Shown piece after piece: positions 8,040-64,000 of a stretch of DNA of 64,000 nt. The notes under the pieces were generated by a model. That model did no database searches, was not told where the DNA came from, and saw only the letters and a program-made list of their open reading frames with translations. Numbering within the stretch: the stretch's first letter is position 1; every line of letters begins with the position of its first letter. The stretch is from contig CAYMZG010000001.1 in assembly GCA_964394925.1 (NCBI GenBank), positions 3,656 through 67,655 of the forward strand, given 5' to 3'. This DNA is from an uncultured Candidatus Saccharibacteria bacterium. GTDB taxonomy: Bacteria; Patescibacteriota; Saccharimonadia; Saccharimonadales; CAYLGV01. Both the position numbers and the translations under genes were made by a program.

Positions 8040-8096
8040 TTTGCATAATCCGGCGCGAGCACATAGTATTGAATCGCCGGTAACCTATTATGCAAA
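8040..8096 (+). terminator. long imperfect stem-loop just after the 7586..8029 stop (no clear U tract)
   Basis: TTTGCATAAT-CCGGCG (8040-8055) pairs with CGCCGG (8075-8080) and ATTATGCAAA (8087-8096), with a 6-nt bulge on the right arm. Confidence 0.3.
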
Positions 8097-8173
8097 TAAT
8101 TGGAATCTAGAAAAATTTATAGTGTTTTAAAACATGCTTGTAGTTTTTGTAACTATGTTGTAGAGTATTTTTA

Positions 8174-9271
8174 ATGAAGGAAGAAGTTTTAGGTGGTCGC
8201 ACAGAAGCTGTGGAAGCGTTAGCCTCGCCTTTTGCACGTGCCCTTTCACCCGAGATTGTCTCTGCAGGTGAAATAGAAGCAATGGCCCACCTGGCAGAAG
8301 AGATGCTAGAACTTGACGGAGAAGAATCGCTTGTAAATGGAATGCCAGCGTTAGTTACGCTGCACTATGCTAGGACTAAGATTGATGACACCACGTACTA
8401 TGTACGTGTTTTTCGCCCACTCGATACACCTGATGAGATGCCTGGTATTGTGTTTGATCTCACTGAGGATACCGTTGTTCATACACCCAACATGTATGCT
8501 GTGCGCTTTAAGGACCTTGCGTCTAGCATCGCTCTTGTTGTCGATGACGACCTCAACCCACATGTTAATGACCCGAAAGAGGTAGAACAAATAAAAGCTT
8601 TCTTGGGCGAGATATCCGAAAAAGTGGGCCAAGCTCAGATAGAACAACGACAACAAGCCAATGACCTTGAAGATCAAAAACGCCAGTCTCGACACAACCA
8701 CGTTCGTGACATTGCGCATAGAGTGGGCCGCTATTCTTTCAGAGTATTTGCTATTGCAGCTGCGCTTGGTCTTGTCTATGGCGCGACGCATATTGATTAT
8801 GAACCGGTCAAGAGAGTTTTTAGGAGTAACCGAGATAAGTTTGATGAAGTGGGTCACTCGCTCGATGATGGCCAGATTATCCCGCTAGGTGGTGAAGCGA
8901 GTCCGCAATTCTCGCTTCAGCTATATGATGATAAGTCACTTTCAGTATCAAATATGCCTCGTATGATGAGTAAAGACGCCAACCAAAACGATATGATGAT
9001 GGTCGATGACGGCCTACGTGAGGTTGTCATAACCAGCCCGGAGGGCCGCGATAGCTGCACTATAATCAAGGTTGAAAAAGCGGCTCATGATGCCGTTCTA
9101 AAAGCTTGGACCGATTTTGCTGGTGCAAATGGCGTAAGTAGGGCTGATGAATTAACGGTAACGTACAGCAGCGATGAAATCAAAGCATGCTGGCATGGAC
9201 AAGAACGAAACCCCAATGATGACCCGCGCATTGTCTACGATATATACCAGCCGACCCCCGGCACTCGCTAA
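8174..9271 (+). CDS. hypothetical protein with one central TM segment
   Basis: 365-aa ORF. Acidic N-half, TM FRVFAIAAALGLVYGATHI, C-terminal domain. No family recognised. Confidence 0.5.
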   Translation: MKEEVLGGRTEAVEALASPFARALSPEIVSAGEIEAMAHLAEEMLELDGEESLVNGMPALVTLHYARTKIDDTTYYVRVFRPLDTPDEMPGIVFDLTEDTVVHTPNMYAVRFKDLASSIALVVDDDLNPHVNDPKEVEQIKAFLGEISEKVGQAQIEQRQQANDLEDQKRQSRHNHVRDIAHRVGRYSFRVFAIAAALGLVYGATHIDYEPVKRVFRSNRDKFDEVGHSLDDGQIIPLGGEASPQFSLQLYDDKSLSVSNMPRMMSKDANQNDMMMVDDGLREVVITSPEGRDSCTIIKVEKAAHDAVLKAWTDFAGANGVSRADELTVTYSSDEIKACWHGQERNPNDDPRIVYDIYQPTPGTR

Positions 9272-12550: not shown

Positions 12551-13423
12551 CTATTTCATTAGTTTAGGTAACTCGCGCTTTTTGCGCTCGATCTCGGCAC
12601 CTTCAGCATCATATTGTGACAGGGCGTTAAATAGAGGCATAACGATCTCTTCGGGTAAGGCTCTCAGCTGGCCCTGACTCGTGGGGACCATCACCGAAAC
12701 CGACGAACCCAGTACGTCATTCACGTGATTTGCTTCTTTATAGCGTCGTATTACAGCAAGAACTGCATCGCTCAGCGTAGTGGCAGTCACTGTTTCCTCG
12801 AAGGGCTGCACACCTTCGCGCTCCCATGATGTCAAAATTTGAATAGTGAATGACTCGGAAACCTCGGCCTGCACAACCGCTCCCCGTTCTTGTTGTAGCC
12901 TTGCGAGTCTCACCTGTTGCTCCACAATCAGCTCATCGAGCGTGCGCTCCAAGTGTTTTTGAATGTCAAAGCCATTGGCACGGTTAAGGGCTGCCTGCTC
13001 ATACTGTTTTTTCATGGCATCAAGAACCGCCCGAACGCGTGTACGCGCAACGTCAGTCTCGATTGGATGATGCAACCCATCGGTAATTATCGCTTCGGGC
13101 CTACGAGATAAAACGATCCACTCGCGCACTTCATTAGATTCTGCATCTCGTTTATAAATAACTTTATGAAAACGATCAGCCCGCGTGTAGCCTGCAAATA
13201 CCGTAACGGGCTCATCTTCTCCGTCAATTGCCACAGTAATCTCAGGCGTACGATGAAAGCCAACATCGTCGGTGATTGTCTCGAAGCGCTCGATAAGCGT
13301 ATCAATTCCTCGCACCATAACGGCTGGATCAATGAGTATAGCGCGCTCAATGGCATCAAGCTCCGCCTGTTGACTTGGCTCATTACTATTTATGGGCTCA
13401 ATTTGTGTCTCAAAATTTGACAT
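12551..13423 (-). CDS. hypothetical cytoplasmic protein
   Basis: 290-aa ORF, acidic, predicted helical. No family recognised. Confidence 0.5.
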   Translation of the reverse strand: MSNFETQIEPINSNEPSQQAELDAIERAILIDPAVMVRGIDTLIERFETITDDVGFHRTPEITVAIDGEDEPVTVFAGYTRADRFHKVIYKRDAESNEVREWIVLSRRPEAIITDGLHHPIETDVARTRVRAVLDAMKKQYEQAALNRANGFDIQKHLERTLDELIVEQQVRLARLQQERGAVVQAEVSESFTIQILTSWEREGVQPFEETVTATTLSDAVLAVIRRYKEANHVNDVLGSSVSVMVPTSQGQLRALPEEIVMPLFNALSQYDAEGAEIERKKRELPKLMK

Positions 13424-13534
13424 CTATAATATAAAACTCCTGGCTTGCAAGTTTAATACTCCTTGGGCAAAACAACAAGCATGAGCGACTTGGTGCACGC
13501 AAACAGTCACGCGTCAATTCTTCAGTTCAAACGG

Positions 13535-14224
13535 CTACTCTGCTGAGACGGTGAACGTGCCAAACGTATCTGGATGATCATGGTCATGAAATTCAAATGT
13601 ACCAGCTTCGGTAAGGGTAATGGTGTAGTTTTTCTTTTTTGTGGTGAGGGGGAACTCGCTGACACCAGCATACGGGGTATGCGCCGGATGCACCCCAAAA
13701 GCCATCTCTCGCTCCACGCTATCTTGGTTTATGAATGTAAGACTGTCGCACTGCTTTGCTTCGGTGTGTATGGCGTTAACCTTGCCGTTGGTTATATACA
13801 CGATGTGATTCTTGCCAATTTCGTCGCATGCGCCCGTCTTAGTTCCACCAACTTCGGCAATGCCCTCGTCGGTAACCAATTTCTTAGTGGCGTCTTGAGG
13901 TTTCATATTGTAATGAAGGTTGTTCATGATCATGACTGAGCCACCAACCACTACACCAACAATGAATAGTGTGGCAATAAAGAAATACAAATTCCACCGC
14001 GGCTTTGGCCCACGGCCAAGGTGCAAAAAGAACACGACTTGTATAACAACCTGCACAAATGCAAAGGCAAGAATGGCTTTTAGAAGCAGTGATGATACGC
14101 CGATAGTTTTGTGCGTTACCAGATAGTACGGGATAATCGTACAGATCAATGACAGTATAAAACCGGCAATGTAAGACCCCAGTGTGCCCTTTTCTTGGTG
14201 CTCAGATGATGTATGTTCGCTCAT
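13535..14224 (-). CDS. cyoD: cytochrome o (bo3) ubiquinol oxidase subunit IV fused to a ~115-aa C-terminal cupredoxin-like domain
   Basis: The first ~110 aa align with CyoD/QoxD (GSYIAGFILSLICTIIPYYLV...VQVVFFLHLG...MIMNNLHYNM). The remainder (KNHIVYITNGK...DSLTFINQD...AGTFEFHDHDHPDTFGTFTV) resembles Cupredoxin_1. Confidence 0.8.
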   Translation of the reverse strand: MSEHTSSEHQEKGTLGSYIAGFILSLICTIIPYYLVTHKTIGVSSLLLKAILAFAFVQVVIQVVFFLHLGRGPKPRWNLYFFIATLFIVGVVVGGSVMIMNNLHYNMKPQDATKKLVTDEGIAEVGGTKTGACDEIGKNHIVYITNGKVNAIHTEAKQCDSLTFINQDSVEREMAFGVHPAHTPYAGVSEFPLTTKKKNYTITLTEAGTFEFHDHDHPDTFGTFTVSAE

Positions 14225-14835
14225 ACGAAAGCCCCCAGGTACACAATAGTAAAGATAAAAATCCAGACGATATCAAGAAAGTGCCAAAACAGACTGAGCA
14301 TACTTAACTTGCGTGTCATATTCGCTGTCAGACCTCGCTTAATGGTATACCCAAGTGTTACGGCCATCCAGAGCAAGCCAGAAATAATATGCAAACCATG
14401 CGTGCCCACCAACACAAAGAACGATGACATAAAGGCGTTACTACGTAAGGTATGGCCCTCATGAATGAGCGCCGAAAACTCGCGTAGTTCAAGGGTTAAG
14501 AATGCGAGACCGAGTATGAACGTCACCATGAACCAGCCGATGGCTTGGGCCTTGTTGCCCTTTCGCACCGCAATCATGGCAATACCGCAAGTAAAACTAC
14601 TCGTGAGTAGAATGATGGTTTCTGTTAACGCCAGTGGCAGGCTAAACAACTCGCGGCCCGACTCACCGCCCACTGTGTTATTGTGCAGTACCGCATAAAC
14701 CGCAAATAGAATGGCAAACATTAAGAGGTCAGTCATAAGATAGACCCAAAAACCAAACATCGCTCGATCGTTTGCTTCGGCTTCGTGATGGCTGAGCTTA
14801 GGCGTTGCTGCCATGCTTGGAGCCCTTCTTGCCAA
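14221..14835 (-). CDS. cyoC: cytochrome o ubiquinol oxidase subunit III
   Basis: 204 aa, 5 TM, heme-copper oxidase subunit III-like (FGFWVYLMTDLLMFA...HGLHIISGLLWM...FWHFLDIVWIFIFT). ATGA overlap with cyoD. Confidence 0.85.
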   Translation of the reverse strand: MARRAPSMAATPKLSHHEAEANDRAMFGFWVYLMTDLLMFAILFAVYAVLHNNTVGGESGRELFSLPLALTETIILLTSSFTCGIAMIAVRKGNKAQAIGWFMVTFILGLAFLTLELREFSALIHEGHTLRSNAFMSSFFVLVGTHGLHIISGLLWMAVTLGYTIKRGLTANMTRKLSMLSLFWHFLDIVWIFIFTIVYLGAFV

Positions 14836-16909
14836 GACTGAATACCCAGTCCAGACACACTTTGATTAGTTCGCGGAGCCCCATGTCTGAATCGGTGTCA
14901 TAAAACGCGTGGCCATTCGTGGCTGGAGCTGGCTTGGCTGGCGTTGGTACATTATGCTCTTTCTCATAGGCCTCAACCTCAGCAGCCGAAAGGGTGTATT
15001 CTGAATCTTCGCGGAAGCCACGGACGATAAAGGTAATAATGATCGCGACGATCGAAACAACCACCAACCAAGTGATTTCCCATACAAAACCAAAGCCGAG
15101 CATAAAGGCGAAAATTGATAGGTAAATGCCAACGGCTGTGCGTTTGGGCATGTGTATATCCTCGTATTTTGGTGGCTTGTCGCCTTCGGCCTTGATGTCG
15201 AGGAACGCATCACGCGAACGGACCTTAGGAATAGCACGGAAGTTATAAAACGGTGGTGGTGAAGTAGTAGACCATTCTAGCGTTCTGCCCTGCCATGGAT
15301 CGCCCGTGCGATCACGTAAACGCTTGCGATCAATGATGCTGGCGAGGATCTGCGCAAGCTGTAAAACTACACCGAGCATGATAACCAGCCCACCAATAAG
15401 CATGAGTATAAAGAATGGTTGCCAGCCCGTCGAGGCCTCATAGTGATCCATGCGGCGAGTAGCCCCCATGATACCGAGAATATACATTGGTACGAATGAC
15501 AAACAAAAGCCCACAATCCAGCACCAAAACGCGTAACGACCAATGCGTTCGTTCAGCCTAAAGCCGGTGAACTTAGGGAACCAATACGCTATGCCGGCGA
15601 AAATACCGAATAGCACACCACCGATGACCGTGGAGTGGAAGTGCGCTACCAAGAACAGACTATTATGTAGCTGGAAGTCGACCGGCGGGATCGCCAGCAA
15701 GATTCCCGACAAGCCACCAATTGCGAAGATCGCCACAAAGCCCATGAACCACAACATAGGTGTATCGAAGCGGATCTTACCCTTATACATAGTCGCAAAC
15801 CAGTTCAGTACTAATGCTGAGGTTGGAATAGCAATAAACATGGTCATGAGGCCAAAGAAGGCATTTACGTCGGCACTGGCGCCCATAGTAAAGAAGTGGT
15901 GTAACCACACCGAAAGCGCCAACACCGACACGCCTATCAAGCCAAGCACGTTCGACTTATAGCTGGCAATTGACTTACGACTAAAGGTAGCCACAATTTC
16001 CGAGAACACACCAAAACAAGGCAGCACCAGAATATAAACTTCGGGGTGGCCCCACATCCAAATAAGATTGGTATACATCATCGGGTCACCGCCCCCAAGC
16101 ACGGTGAAGAAGTGCGTGCCGAGGTAGCGATCAAAGAACATCAAGAACAGTGTGGCGGTAAGCAGTGGGAAGACTGTTACGGCCATCATCATGCTGCACA
16201 GTGAGCCCCAGGTAAACAGCGGCATGCGCATGAGGCTCATACCAGGAGCGCGCATTTTAAGAATTGTCATAATAAAGTTAATCGCACCAAGCGTGGTACC
16301 AATACCCGAAATCTGCAGACTCCAAATAAGGTAATCCACTCCCACTCCCGGACTAAAGGCCTTGCCAGAGAGTGGCGCTACCGCCAACCAGCCCGTGGCA
16401 GCATACTGACCACCCAAGAAAAAGAACATGTTAACCATGACCACTCCGGCAATAAATAGCCAGAAACCAAGTGTGTTCATAAGTGGTGAAGCCAGATCGC
16501 GGGCACCAATCTGGAGCGGCACGATATAATTAATCAATCCGAACACAAAAGCCATCGCCACAAAGAAGACCATGATGTTACCGTGTGCCGTAAATATCTG
16601 CTGGAAGTGATCAGACGACAGATAACCGTGCGAACTACCAGAGGCCAGTGCCTGCTGCAGCCAAATCATAATGGCGTCGAGTCCACCGCGCAGCAACATG
16701 GCGCCACCAGCGATGAAATACATAATACCGATCTTTTTAGGGTCAACGGTGGTAAGCCACTCTTTCCAAAGCCACTTCCAACGTTTCTTGTAGGTAATCA
16801 GCGCTACAAAGAACAGTGCAATACCTATGAAAGCTACAGAACCACCAATGGTGAACCACTCATGTGGCAATGCTTCAGCATTTAATTTACCAAGGAGTAG
16901 CTGTCTCAT
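14798..16909 (-). CDS. cyoB: cytochrome o ubiquinol oxidase subunit I
   Basis: 703 aa. WMWGHPEVYILVLPCFG (CuB His / cross-linked Tyr) and WLHHFFTMG (His-His) signatures of heme-copper oxidase subunit I. Confidence 0.95.
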   Translation of the reverse strand: MRQLLLGKLNAEALPHEWFTIGGSVAFIGIALFFVALITYKKRWKWLWKEWLTTVDPKKIGIMYFIAGGAMLLRGGLDAIMIWLQQALASGSSHGYLSSDHFQQIFTAHGNIMVFFVAMAFVFGLINYIVPLQIGARDLASPLMNTLGFWLFIAGVVMVNMFFFLGGQYAATGWLAVAPLSGKAFSPGVGVDYLIWSLQISGIGTTLGAINFIMTILKMRAPGMSLMRMPLFTWGSLCSMMMAVTVFPLLTATLFLMFFDRYLGTHFFTVLGGGDPMMYTNLIWMWGHPEVYILVLPCFGVFSEIVATFSRKSIASYKSNVLGLIGVSVLALSVWLHHFFTMGASADVNAFFGLMTMFIAIPTSALVLNWFATMYKGKIRFDTPMLWFMGFVAIFAIGGLSGILLAIPPVDFQLHNSLFLVAHFHSTVIGGVLFGIFAGIAYWFPKFTGFRLNERIGRYAFWCWIVGFCLSFVPMYILGIMGATRRMDHYEASTGWQPFFILMLIGGLVIMLGVVLQLAQILASIIDRKRLRDRTGDPWQGRTLEWSTTSPPPFYNFRAIPKVRSRDAFLDIKAEGDKPPKYEDIHMPKRTAVGIYLSIFAFMLGFGFVWEITWLVVVSIVAIIITFIVRGFREDSEYTLSAAEVEAYEKEHNVPTPAKPAPATNGHAFYDTDSDMGLRELIKVCLDWVFSLGKKGSKHGSNA

Positions 16910-17811
16910 TCGTGTGTATGCCCACCATTATATTTATGAACAATCGTATCATACAGATTCGGGTCGGTCAGTGAATAAAAAGCGGGTGGATTGTTCTCGC
17001 TTGGCTTGAGTAATTCTTCATAGGTTGCAGCGTCAAGTTTATTGGGCGAATTTTGCACCGTACGAACCCATTGATCAAATGTCTGTTTGGTGGTTGCATG
17101 AGCAACAAATTGCATGCCCGAGAACCCCGCCCCGTTAATCTCGGCGGACTTACCGGGATAGTCTCCGAGCTTATCGGCCTGCAAGTTTAATCGATTAACA
17201 TGACCGGTCATGGCATACAGTTGGCCACCAAAGTTCGGCATCCAAAATGAGCTCATCGGTGTCTCGTCGGCGGTTAGATCAAATTCAATTGGTGTGTTAA
17301 TTGGCATTTGTACGTAATTTACGGTGGCAATCTTTTGTTCTGGATAAATAAATAGCCATTTCCACCGCAAAGCTACCACCTGCACCGTAATTGGCGGTTT
17401 ATCACTTGCCAGGGCCTTCCTTGGTTCTAAAGTGTGTGTAGCCGGCACCATCATAAATGCCAGAAGCAGAATGAACGAGGTTGGCACCAACCAAAAACAC
17501 GCGGTAACAAATTTGCCATGATGAGTTTCAGGCTCATGTACTGGTTTCTTATTGGTATCGCGATATTTCCAGGCCGTGAAATAAATAAGGCAGATCGTTG
17601 GTACCGCCAGTATCAACATGACTAAAATCGAATAGAATAACAGGTTATGCTGCTGCTGTGCAATCGCGCCTTTGGGGTTGATGATTGCCAGGTTTTTGCC
17701 ACGTAACATGACGGCGATGAGCACAGCGTACGCCAATGGTAAAACAATAAACGGCCAACGCCTGCGACGTGACTTGACCTTTGAGCTGGCAGTATGTTTT
17801 GTCTTAGACAT
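16906..17811 (-). CDS. cyoA: cytochrome o ubiquinol oxidase subunit II (quinol-type, no CuA Cys motif seen)
   Basis: 301 aa. SAEINGAGFSGMQFVAHATTKQTFDQWV closely parallels the E. coli CyoA GPGFSGMKFKAIA region. ATGA overlap with cyoB. Confidence 0.9.
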   Translation of the reverse strand: MSKTKHTASSKVKSRRRRWPFIVLPLAYAVLIAVMLRGKNLAIINPKGAIAQQQHNLLFYSILVMLILAVPTICLIYFTAWKYRDTNKKPVHEPETHHGKFVTACFWLVPTSFILLLAFMMVPATHTLEPRKALASDKPPITVQVVALRWKWLFIYPEQKIATVNYVQMPINTPIEFDLTADETPMSSFWMPNFGGQLYAMTGHVNRLNLQADKLGDYPGKSAEINGAGFSGMQFVAHATTKQTFDQWVRTVQNSPNKLDAATYEELLKPSENNPPAFYSLTDPNLYDTIVHKYNGGHTHE

Positions 17812-60890: not shown

Positions 60891-60918
60891 TTGAACTTGA
60901 ACAAATCGCTGGTATTAT
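60891..60918 (+). promoter_or_regulatory. candidate tRNA-Ala promoter (TTGAAC - 16 nt - TATTAT)
   Basis: Tandem TTGAAC TTGAAC at 60891-60902. TATTAT at 60913-60918, 14 nt before the mature tRNA 5' end. Confidence 0.4.
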
Positions 60919-60932
60919 TAGTGATGCGTTAG

Positions 60933-61009
60933 GGGGCTATGGCGCAGTTGGCTAGCGCGCCTCGATGGCATCGAGGAGGTCGTCGGTTCGAACCCGACTA
61001 GCTCCACCA
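60933..61009 (+). tRNA. tRNA-Ala (anticodon GGC), CCA encoded
   Basis: Manual cloverleaf: acceptor GGGGCTA/TAGCTCC with G3:U70; D arm GCGC-AGTTGGCTA-GCGC; anticodon arm CCTCG-ATGGCAT-CGAGG; variable AGGTC; T arm GTCGG-TTCGAAC-CCGAC; discriminator A; CCA. Confidence 0.9.
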
Positions 61010-61060
61010 CTAAAAAAGACCAATCCGTGGATCGGTCTTTTTTATATCGTGCGCGCCCAC
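61002..61060 (+). repeat. direct repeat copy 1 (59 bp): last 5 nt of the acceptor stem + ACCA + terminator + TATATCGTGCGCGCCCAC
   Basis: 53 of 59 positions are identical to 61604..61662. All 6 differences fall in the hairpin loop (5) or stem (1). Confidence 0.85.
61012..61043. terminator. rho-independent terminator after tRNA-Ala (symmetric A/T runs)
   Basis: AAAAAA-GACCAATC-cgtg-GATCGGTC-TTTTTT (one A/C mismatch). Confidence 0.75.
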
Positions 61061-61080
61061 TATTTAGATGTAGGTCGGGG

Positions 61081-61497
61081 TTATTCATTTGGAACTGACC
61101 TCAACTGCACCGGGTGGAAAAATCGCCAGGTTTGAAGCTCATCAGCCGGAATTAGTATGTGCTCCGAAACAGTTCCGCCGCCAAGTAGTACGTTATCTAG
61201 TAAATTTTCGCAAACCTCTGTTGAATCTTCCGCTGCTTCTTCAAATGATTCTCCCTTAGCCGTGTATGAAAGGGCAACACCTTCATGCGATATATTAATT
61301 GCACATGGCCTGCCAAGCTCTTCGCGTACACGATCAAGCAGTCTCGGGTGTCGCACAACTCCAGGATGAAGATCGATGGTCAACCGGGCAAGCCATGGAA
61401 CCGTCTCGTGTGATGGTAGTGATTCGCCTGGTGTACGCTCAGTCATGCAATACCCCTGTTCAATGAACTGTGCTGTATAAGATAGTACTGTTTCCAT
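61081..61497 (-). CDS. hypothetical protein inside the repeat-bracketed insert
   Basis: 138-aa ORF (METVLSYTAQFIEQGYCMTERTPGE...). No family recognised. Confidence 0.4.
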   Translation of the reverse strand: METVLSYTAQFIEQGYCMTERTPGESLPSHETVPWLARLTIDLHPGVVRHPRLLDRVREELGRPCAINISHEGVALSYTAKGESFEEAAEDSTEVCENLLDNVLLGGGTVSEHILIPADELQTWRFFHPVQLRSVPNE

Positions 61498-61603
61498 TAG
61501 AGCAAATTAGCGTTTGTAGGTCAAACCCAAGACTGTCATGATTGACTGCAATATGATGTTAGCGATTGCAACAAACGGTGTTGATGGGAAAGCCTGCATG
61601 TGC

Positions 61604-61662
61604 CTCCACCACTAAAAAAGACCGATCAACCAATCGGTCTTTTTTATATCGTGCGCGCCCAC
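61604..61662 (+). repeat. direct repeat copy 2 (59 bp), includes a perfect terminator hairpin
   Basis: CTCCACCACT-AAAAAA-GACCGAT-caacca-ATCGGTC-TTTTTT-ATATCGTGCGCGCCCAC. No tRNA body lies upstream of it. Could terminate ligA on the minus strand. Confidence 0.85.
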
Positions 61663-61794
61663 CCTGCGGCGGTGCCCATCATTGTTTGTATTTCACGTGT
61701 TTGTTAGATGCCGATACACGCCGCGTATTGTTGCGCACGAGTTACTTTATAAGCATAACCATGCTGGCCAAAATGTCAATCTCGCGCCAAAAGC

Positions 61795-64000
<2,206 letters not shown>

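Follow-up and report, generated by a model that had tools for sequence, protein, structure and literature searches.

A single-gene insert between two copies of a shared terminator beside a tRNA-Ala gene in Saccharibacteria

Introduction

Islands of foreign DNA in tRNA and tmRNA genes can be recognized by a tRNA-gene (tDNA) signature, as used by Islander (Hudson, Lau & Williams 2015, PMC4383910). The locus described here resembles such an island on a very small scale. It lies in an uncultured Candidatus Saccharibacteria bacterium, where a tRNA-Ala gene is followed by a 0.54-kb insert holding one gene, orf138, between two direct copies of a 59-nt sequence. The DNA analysed is a stretch of 64,000 nucleotides (assembly GCA_964394925.1, contig CAYMZG010000001.1, positions 3,656 to 67,655), called the window in what follows. 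The comparisons cover this 64-kb window of one genome, two occupied strains, and short metagenomic contigs of relatives.

Known systems with a similar layout

A tDNA island (PMC4383910) consists of an intact tRNA gene, a far displaced 3' fragment of that gene in direct orientation, and foreign DNA between them, with an empty site in relatives. All of these are found at the locus, where the cognate fragment is 8 nt long and unoccupied sites occur in related genomes. As in such islands, the window carries the non-native variant on the copy next to the tRNA. The insert is unlike an island in having no integrase, and in measuring only 0.54 kb, where islands run to kilobases. The tRNA contributes just 8 nt to the repeat, the remainder being mostly a terminator and the end of a second RNA gene, and the points of exchange vary. 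Islander expects a tyrosine integrase within the element. Here the sole open reading frame (ORF) encodes 138 aa, has no match in Pfam, PHROGs or NCBIfam, and is predicted to adopt a ferredoxin-like fold. The insert thus falls outside the integrase-defined island class.

A second described class is the cis-mobilizable element (CIME), a decayed integrative and conjugative or integrative and mobilizable element (ICE or IME) that keeps attL and attR (PMC5704250). The insert has the structure of a CIME, since att-like direct repeats bound it and it holds no integration or transfer genes. It differs in its apparent history. There is no sign of descent from an ICE or IME, and it carries one intact, selected gene in place of decayed modules. 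No integrase-bearing relative with the same site was found in 129 loci, in viral contigs or in the 64-kb window.

In Campbell-type integration, a single exchange within a segment shared by two molecules duplicates that segment as direct repeats, wherever in the homology the crossover takes place. Such repeats may afterwards recombine with or convert one another, or release the insert by excision, as with suicide plasmids that carry a chromosomal fragment. The insert is likewise flanked by a duplicated shared segment in direct orientation. Unlike the textbook case, the homology is only 59 bp long and is interrupted by a heterologous loop.

The repeat also recalls the integron attC site, or “59-base element”. 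In both, a single small ORF stands beside an imperfect palindrome of about 60 bp with conserved stems and a variable loop, and the size is that of a cassette. In contrast to attC, however, the palindrome is an ordinary terminator hairpin with an A tract and a T tract, and the repeat extends into two RNA genes. Neither strand of the 59-mer contains a GTTRRRY/RYYYAAC core, and no IntI was found in the window.

Elements of the IS200/IS605 group, which have hairpin ends, use a single small Y1 HUH transposase of ferredoxin fold and cause no target duplication, were considered and rejected, because relatives keep one full 59-mer and a duplication is therefore present. None of the 53 members of the orf138 family tested matches PF01797. 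The family has one conserved His and no conserved Tyr, and the ISDra2 transposase TnpA ranks only 26th among structural matches, with a template modelling (TM) score of 0.35.

In geometry, then, the insert resembles a tDNA island or CIME, and in behaviour a homologously integrated plasmid. What is new is the combination of a very small, single-gene insert that lacks an integrase, an “att” made of a shared terminator and the 3' ends of two convergent RNA genes, and repeats that have continued to exchange sequence.

The repeat and its empty site

Along the + strand, the genes follow in the order 300-aa membrane-anchored protein (-), tRNA-Ala (+), repeat copy 1, orf138 (-), repeat copy 2, a short conserved non-coding stretch, and ligA (-). 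Table 1 gives their coordinates. The non-coding stretch holds a small-RNA-like gene that converges on the tRNA.

A first-pass annotation made from the sequence alone had reported the direct repeat, and a repeat search of the window confirms it. The 59 nt at 61002-61060 recur at 61604-61662 with 53/59 identity (90%). The six differences are confined to a 34-bp palindrome, where five of the six loop bases and one stem base differ. Its remark that copy 2 has no tRNA body upstream also holds. ARAGORN and Rfam (E<=10) find neither a tRNA body nor a pseudo-tRNA 5' of copy 2 in the window, and the second occupied strain described below has no pseudo-tRNA there either. One detail has to be corrected: the repeat includes four nucleotides of the acceptor stem, not five.

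Copy 1 begins at C69 of the tRNA, and its first 8 nt are the CTCC of the acceptor stem plus ACCA. They are followed by one spacer base, the 34-bp bidirectional terminator, and the last 16-18 nt of the small RNA. The tRNA end, CTCCACCA, recurs in direct orientation at 61604-61611. Whichever strand is read, each copy forms a stable hairpin (-13.8 to -18.6 kcal/mol) with a U run behind it. With the insert in place, the tRNA is predicted to end at terminator 1, the small RNA at terminator 2, and orf138, which is read from the small-RNA strand, at terminator 1. In one or other of the window copies 27 nt are non-functional, and these are identical between the two.

The left 20-mer and right 27-mer of the repeat each have exactly two sites in the 64 kb at up to 3 mismatches, where shuffled sequences lead one to expect 0. 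An independent Logan assembly (L001, SRR13287419) is identical throughout the region. Base composition at the locus shows no anomaly.

Evidence for an insertion comes from relatives in which the site is empty. The first-pass annotation had proposed a search for such sites, and they were found in L015, L033, L034, L002 and 9 further metagenomic loci. By its LigA relatives the window belongs to the Saccharibacteria (TM7), within the candidate phyla radiation. L015 is the closest genome in the species collection (LigA identity 89%), and the tRNA of L033 is 99% identical to that of the window. In these four the tRNA is followed by one terminator and (TATAT)CGTGCGCGCCCAC, and then directly by CCTGCGGCGGTGCCC, the sequence that follows copy 2 in the window. 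The 18-mer of the small-RNA end, or its equivalent, thus runs straight into CCTGCGGCGG. Relatives hold a single copy of the 59-mer at the orthologous place. This disposes of the case, named in advance as one that would speak against integration, in which all relatives share the two-copy arrangement. It also follows from the empty relatives that the insertion in the window amounts to 602 bp, the 543 bp plus one 59-mer. A local duplication, which the annotation had left open, is rejected, since relatives with an empty site lack the 543 bp altogether.

A motif from the conserved small-RNA stretch retrieved more than 120 loci in a metagenome scan. The unoccupied arrangement was seen in 13 loci overall, with a convergent tRNA-Ala(GGC) 33-50 nt past the motif. 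Altogether at least 17 empty loci from diverse Saccharibacteria stand against two occupied sister strains. A blastn search with the insert among the first 44 loci matched the window and L001 alone. No second element or repeat was found at this junction, at either the small-RNA or the tRNA end, in 129 related loci. Genes separate the small RNA from a convergent tRNA-Ala in fourteen loci, which were examined for repeats on either side; only the window has them. Weak similarities in L151 and L081 (score 11) are unconvincing as repeats. Metagenome scanning with a 23-mer of the repeat found nothing, and neither did four pattern scans and one protein-based scan of viral contigs. Look-ups with the LigA and the 300-aa protein of the window found no further strain of the same species.

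A second occupied strain

Evidence that the repeats have exchanged sequence comes from a second strain, L166 (Logan SRR12404964), found through cluster member P0080. Besides ligA, the small RNA and a tRNA, it carries the insert, with identical boundaries. Its LigA differs from that of the window at 25 of 677 residues, and the ligA genes share 90.3% nucleotide identity.

The two strains have the same two loop alleles in opposite places. In the window, read along the small-RNA strand, the copy on the small-RNA side is GACCGAT-TGGTTG-ATCGGTC and that on the tRNA side GACCGAT-CCACGG-ATTGGTC. In L166 the small-RNA side reads GACCAAT-CCACGG-ATTGGTC, and the tRNA side reads GACCGAT-TGGTTG-ATCGGTC. 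Each L166 copy accordingly matches the opposite window copy better (56/59 and 53/59). Since the same alleles recur in L166, the loop difference in the window represents two alleles rather than decay in place. Copy 1 of the window is chimeric, taking its stem G from one allele and its loop and opposite stem base from the other.

A further marker lies just before the A tract, where both window copies read ATAT and both L166 copies read AATT. All four combinations of this marker with the loop alleles exist, which requires at least one exchange inside the repeat. The point of this exchange differs from the one implied by the chimera of copy 1, so exchange was not confined to one position. Across the two strains, all four copies of the repeat are mosaics that require exchanges at different positions.

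Two other explanations of the swapped loops were examined. A double inversion through the hairpin arms is rejected, since it would have left the L166 loops reverse-complemented, and they are not. The swap is also unlikely to come from misassembly: no more than 24 consecutive nt are common to both L166 copies, shorter than k-1 (k=31), and L001 reproduces the window arrangement.

The displaced, non-functional pieces have diverged in L166, to GGCGGTGAAG for the tRNA and to GTAGGC for the small RNA. Those of the window are intact.

Exchange has also involved the insert as a whole. Synonymous divergence between the window and L166 is 0.15 in orf138, 0.29 in the 3' third of ligA and 0.61 in its 5' part (orf138 versus ligA 5' part, four-fold lower, p=1e-7). 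The lower divergence of the insert shows that it was exchanged between lineages, together with its near flank, after the backbones had split.

On the other side, homology between the two strains ends exactly at the outer edge of the 59-mer. Despite ligA genes that are about 90% identical, the bodies of the tRNA-Ala(GGC) genes (60933-61001 in the window, 3965-4035 in L166) are very unlike. The D arm is of the type GGCGCAGTTGGCTAGCGCGC in the window, L033 and L002, and of the type AGCTCAGTTGATTAGAGCGC in L166, L015 and L103. The break in homology at the edge of the repeat suggests that the tRNA gene was replaced by recombination.

A hypervariable patch (Table 1) lies at the small-RNA end of the insert. 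The 70 nt adjoining it are 97% identical between the window and L166, and the patch itself may be a spacer under relaxed constraint or a mark left by a recombination junction.

The cargo gene

The single ORF on the opposite strand of the insert had been described as an orphan. The ORF stands, and the orphan status does not. A word-indexed protein search returned only the orf138 protein itself, and the impression that this gave was corrected by an exhaustive HMMER search, in which 58 homologues of 90-170 aa came to light. Common to them are the motif W..L....P.G..RHPRLLD.V...LGR.CAID...GV.VSF and, at the C terminus, an L.LV tail. The family has no match in Pfam, PHROGs, PADLOC, NCBIfam or the sequences of the PDB, and tblastn against phage and plasmid collections gave no orf138 match.

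An AlphaFold (AF2) model built on the family alignment has the order beta-alpha-beta-beta-alpha-beta, with a mean confidence score (pLDDT) of 81.8. The model is a confident one, and it gives this uncharacterised family of small proteins a ferredoxin-like fold. Structural matches to the model are generic ferredoxin-like proteins and one unnamed phage protein of 95 aa (E 4e-4, TM 0.76).

The NCBI record gives a 121-aa product starting at Met18 (P0079). This start is favoured because a promoter-like -10 box appears to overlap the upstream ATG, and because AGGGG precedes Met18, both as read by eye. Conservation between the window and L166 is 97% over 61508-61575.

The first-pass annotation had named a decayed island remnant as one possibility, and the cargo does not bear out decay. 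The orf138 genes of the two strains differ by 14 synonymous and 7 non-synonymous changes, a dN/dS of 0.15, and the cargo is conserved. By this measure orf138 is a working gene under purifying selection.

The family occurs sporadically and otherwise at other locations. A 169-aa homologue with 33% identity is found on a Saccharibacteria-like contig (L037/L038, 8001-8510), 4 kb from a LemA-M48-ligA block. Its neighbours include type I restriction-modification genes, two SMODS nucleotidyltransferases with an S_4TM effector, and a protein with two helix-turn-helix domains, a setting that resembles a defence island. Outside the species, the closest homologue (P0022, 54% identity; L044, 433-894) is a GC-rich gene on a short contig with flanks of lower GC content. 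No flanking repeats surround the homologues in L037 and L040. Arg, Ala and Pro are abundant in many family members, and the family may be shared with high-GC bacteria, for example the Actinobacteria that host Saccharibacteria.

Models for the origin of the insert

The model preferred here is a Campbell-type insertion through the 59-bp homology, carried out by host recombination, with repeats that are still exchanging; its probability is put at about one half. The process would start with a small DNA that carried orf138, probably with a promoter of its own, as well as a slightly divergent version of the 59-bp junction between tRNA-Ala and small RNA. A single exchange with the chromosomal junction would then have inserted it. 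The donor may have been a circle, as in the Campbell scheme, or a linear piece in the equivalent “ends-in” configuration. The exchange would duplicate the 59 bp, so that the tRNA, the small RNA and orf138 each have a complete bidirectional terminator and both RNA 3' ends are kept. It would be driven by homology and the recombination machinery of the host, not by an integrase encoded on the element. Later, the repeats kept swapping sequence and the insert moved between diverged strains, being retained because orf138 is functional. The data show the insertion itself, the empty sites, the make-up of the repeat, selection on orf138, and exchange between the copies and between strains, whereas the circular intermediate, the machinery and the order of events are inferred.

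Homology-driven exchange is favoured because no recombinase was found, the site is not used by other elements, the exchange points vary, and the copies evolve in concert. The recombinase search covered the insert and all ORFs of 200-470 aa in the 64 kb. The absence of an integrase from the bracketed segment, reported by the first-pass annotation, therefore extends to the window ORFs of that size. As for the direction of the event, the stem G of copy 2 is also that of all four close relatives. Copy 2 thus looks native and copy 1 imported, which would place the original crossover within a block of 20 bp that includes the tRNA 3' end.

Several points weigh against this model. The 20-bp identity block available to the original crossover is short for a RecA-type exchange. 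By analogy with described islands, an intact tRNA beside the variant copy, with a far displaced 3' fragment, is exactly the geometry left by a tyrosine integrase, and such an enzyme may have acted in trans from outside the 64 kb that were searched. The history of the swapped loops can be reconstructed from two strains in more than one way, and gene conversion following an integrase event would look alike. Finally, no circular form or excision product was seen.

The most serious rival, a possible though clearly less probable one, is the remnant of a site-specific integrative element, as the first-pass annotation had read the locus. A tyrosine integrase, since lost or located elsewhere, would have joined to attB an attP that mimicked the 3' end of tRNA-Ala and what lies downstream of it. 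Internal deletion would then have left a CIME-like stub of attL, attR and one cargo gene, and CIMEs are a described class (PMC5704250). The geometry of a circle joined at a shared segment is borne out by the tDNA signature and by the empty relatives. The non-native stem base on the tRNA-side copy, with the native base on the far copy, is also as in tDNA islands (PMC4383910), and the diverged, insert-derived ends of the repeats in L166 (GGCGGTGAAG) resemble attP homology fading at its edges. Other observations speak against this reading. The insert and the window ORFs of 200-470 aa include no integrase, tRNA accounts for only 8 of the 59 nt, the 129 related loci hold no integrase-bearing or repeat-bounded element at the site, and viral contigs gave no match. 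With 126 non-coding bp, the 602 bp could hardly accommodate an attP with integrase arm-binding sites, which takes about 250 bp (PMC4383910), and the cargo is intact and selected, so that the element does not look decayed. Exchange points that vary by copy and by strain argue against a single site-specific crossover, which should leave one fixed point, although later gene conversion could have overwritten such a point. A bolder version of the homology-driven model, and an unlikely one, would make the locus a minimal gene cassette of the candidate phyla radiation (CPR) that needs no integrase. Its one gene would repeatedly loop out, re-enter and pass between strains through the 59 bp, with the copies of the bidirectional terminator serving as the recombination site. 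If this were true, the swapped loop alleles of the two strains would be the footprint of cycles of excision and re-integration.

Replication could have switched templates at the palindromic terminator, through a break or a stalled fork, copying the junction, jumping to foreign DNA and returning 59 bp upstream. A near-perfect palindrome of 34 bp is a plausible obstacle to a fork, and the event is a one-off among 129 loci. Duplication in place from one template should, however, yield copies that start out identical, yet two loop alleles persist in two strains, and the X loop allele would need a separate source. The boundaries are moreover clean and functionally exact for three transcription units, which makes template switching improbable. 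Still harder to credit is that the two-repeat state is ancestral, for instance as the remains of a second tRNA-Ala with its terminator, and that the “empty” relatives lost the segment. Direct repeats do allow precise deletion by recombination, and some Saccharibacteria (L004, L005) have two tRNA-Ala genes about 0.5 kb apart. In those, though, the repeats are whole tRNA paralogues in a different arrangement. The ancestral scenario is also unparsimonious, with many diverse loci empty and two sister strains occupied, no tRNA remnant precedes copy 2, and the orf138 family is sporadic and otherwise found elsewhere. The least credible explanation, with next to nothing in its favour beyond the generic look of the intrinsic terminator inside the 59-mer, is a dispersed terminator or repetitive extragenic palindromic (REP)-like repeat that happens to occur as a pair. 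The search for further copies, which the annotation had recommended against this case, found only two in 64 kb even at 3 mismatches. Relatives have a single orthologous copy, and the sequence on either side of the hairpin belongs to the end of a specific gene.

A conserved small RNA gene

Between ligA and the terminator lies a conserved, gene-like unit on the ligA strand, which shares the terminator hairpin of the tRNA from the opposite side. It contains an outer helix P1 (CGUGCGC/GCGCACG), a putative second helix P2 (GCGGCG/CGCCGC), and an A- and C-rich central loop (AAACAAACA-type).

Support for these helices comes from covariation, which is strong in the outer one. In nine sequences, 14/14 tested pairs are paired in every one, with three compensatory double changes, a result unmatched by any shuffle or slid register. 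The search pattern had left one pair of the outer helix free. Among 97 distinct metagenomic variants this pair is C:G in 76, U:A in 13, U:G in 7, A:G in 1 and C:A in 0. That it is never C:A fits an RNA read from the ligA strand. RNAalifold, applied to 27 sequences, confirmed the outer helix and preferred a local hairpin over the long-range second helix.

No Rfam family matches the gene. Its variants come from soil, rhizosphere and freshwater metagenomes, and the RNA, as predicted from alignment and covariation, is widespread in Saccharibacteria.

Neighbouring features and other cargo

Table 1. Features of the locus, in coordinates of the window.
Feature	Position	Strand	Basis and remarks
tRNA promoter-like site TTGAAC-16-TATTAT	60891..60918	+	Consensus scan; region kept upstream of the tRNA in L015, L033 and L034
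tRNA-Ala(GGC), intact	60933..61009	+	ARAGORN; Rfam RF00005, 62.4 bits; last 8 nt CTCCACCA (61002-61009) open copy 1
Repeat copy 1, attL-like, tRNA side	61002..61060		tRNA 3' end, terminator 1, displaced 18-nt small-RNA 3' end TATATCGTGCGCGCCCAC
Bidirectional terminator 1	61011-61044		Loop CCGTGG; on the + strand the stem has an A.C mismatch; -13.8 and -18.6 kcal/mol
Insert, 543 bp	61061..61603		Missing from empty-site relatives; same boundaries in L166
Cargo gene orf138	61081..61497	-	138-aa ORF; likely start Met18 at 61446, giving 121 aa
Candidate orf138 promoter TTGACC-17-TCTAAT, inside the insert	61496..61524	-	Putative, read by eye; not listed by the consensus scanner
Hypervariable patch	61576..61613		Displaced tRNA fragment of copy 2 and adjoining 28 nt; 11/38 positions differ from L166; sliding identity 80%
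Repeat copy 2, attR-like, small-RNA side	61604..61662		Displaced 8-nt tRNA fragment, terminator 2, functional small-RNA 3' end
Bidirectional terminator 2	61613-61646		Loop CAACCA; perfect stem
Small-RNA-like gene	61613..61746	-	Converges on the tRNA; ends in terminator 2; alignments and covariation
Small-RNA promoter TTGACA-16-TATGCT	61752..61779	-	Consensus scan; conserved in nine relatives
ligA, NAD-dependent DNA ligase	61795..63825	-	Pfam; conserved flank used for finding relatives

The interval between the small RNA and tRNA-Ala is a hot spot for accessory genes in Saccharibacteria. Seven loci (L077, L114, L088, L053, L081, L142 and L075) have other cargo there, without flanking repeats. 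It includes a recurrent family of about 125 aa (MAKxFDFSGxWxS...GDWxxTR, no Pfam match), sometimes in two copies, and a beta-lactamase-like gene (PF13354).

ORFs specific to particular lineages lie close by in other relatives, none with a clear Pfam family. L015 has orf152 (8054-8512, +) between ligA and the small-RNA promoter. In L034 (4137-4841, -) and L036, orf234 lies between the gene for the 300-aa protein and the tRNA promoter; the idea that orf234 of L034 is a LAGLIDADG endonuclease was a guess that found no Pfam support. L032 has a 245-aa LPXTG-like ORF (160-897, -), with no tRNA present there.

Six short-read contigs (L028-L031, L035 and L045; first 140-300 nt), from relatives and from the window's own species, end 90-300 nt upstream of the gene for the 300-aa protein, at or near the tRNA. 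Such ends fit an assembly-breaking repeat or strain variation at this place.

Elsewhere in the window, a cytochrome oxidase set (12551-17811) comprises COX2 with an aromatic-rich motif, COX3, subunit IV and a 703-aa ORF, near a sortase and a UbiA prenyltransferase. It suggests an aerobic, environmental lineage of Saccharibacteria.

Implications

The gain of genes is poorly documented in the CPR, including Saccharibacteria, because genomes are tiny, recognisable mobile elements few and cultured members rare. This locus is a cleanly resolved gain of a single gene, with empty sites, a second occupied strain, and evidence that its flanking repeats remain active in recombination. The small RNA and the protein family, both uncharacterised by-products of the analysis, may be of more lasting use than the insertion itself.

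A tRNA gene with a displaced fragment is, taken alone, no proof of integration by an integrase. A bidirectional terminator shared between two RNA genes can be an entry point for new DNA without any visible integrase.

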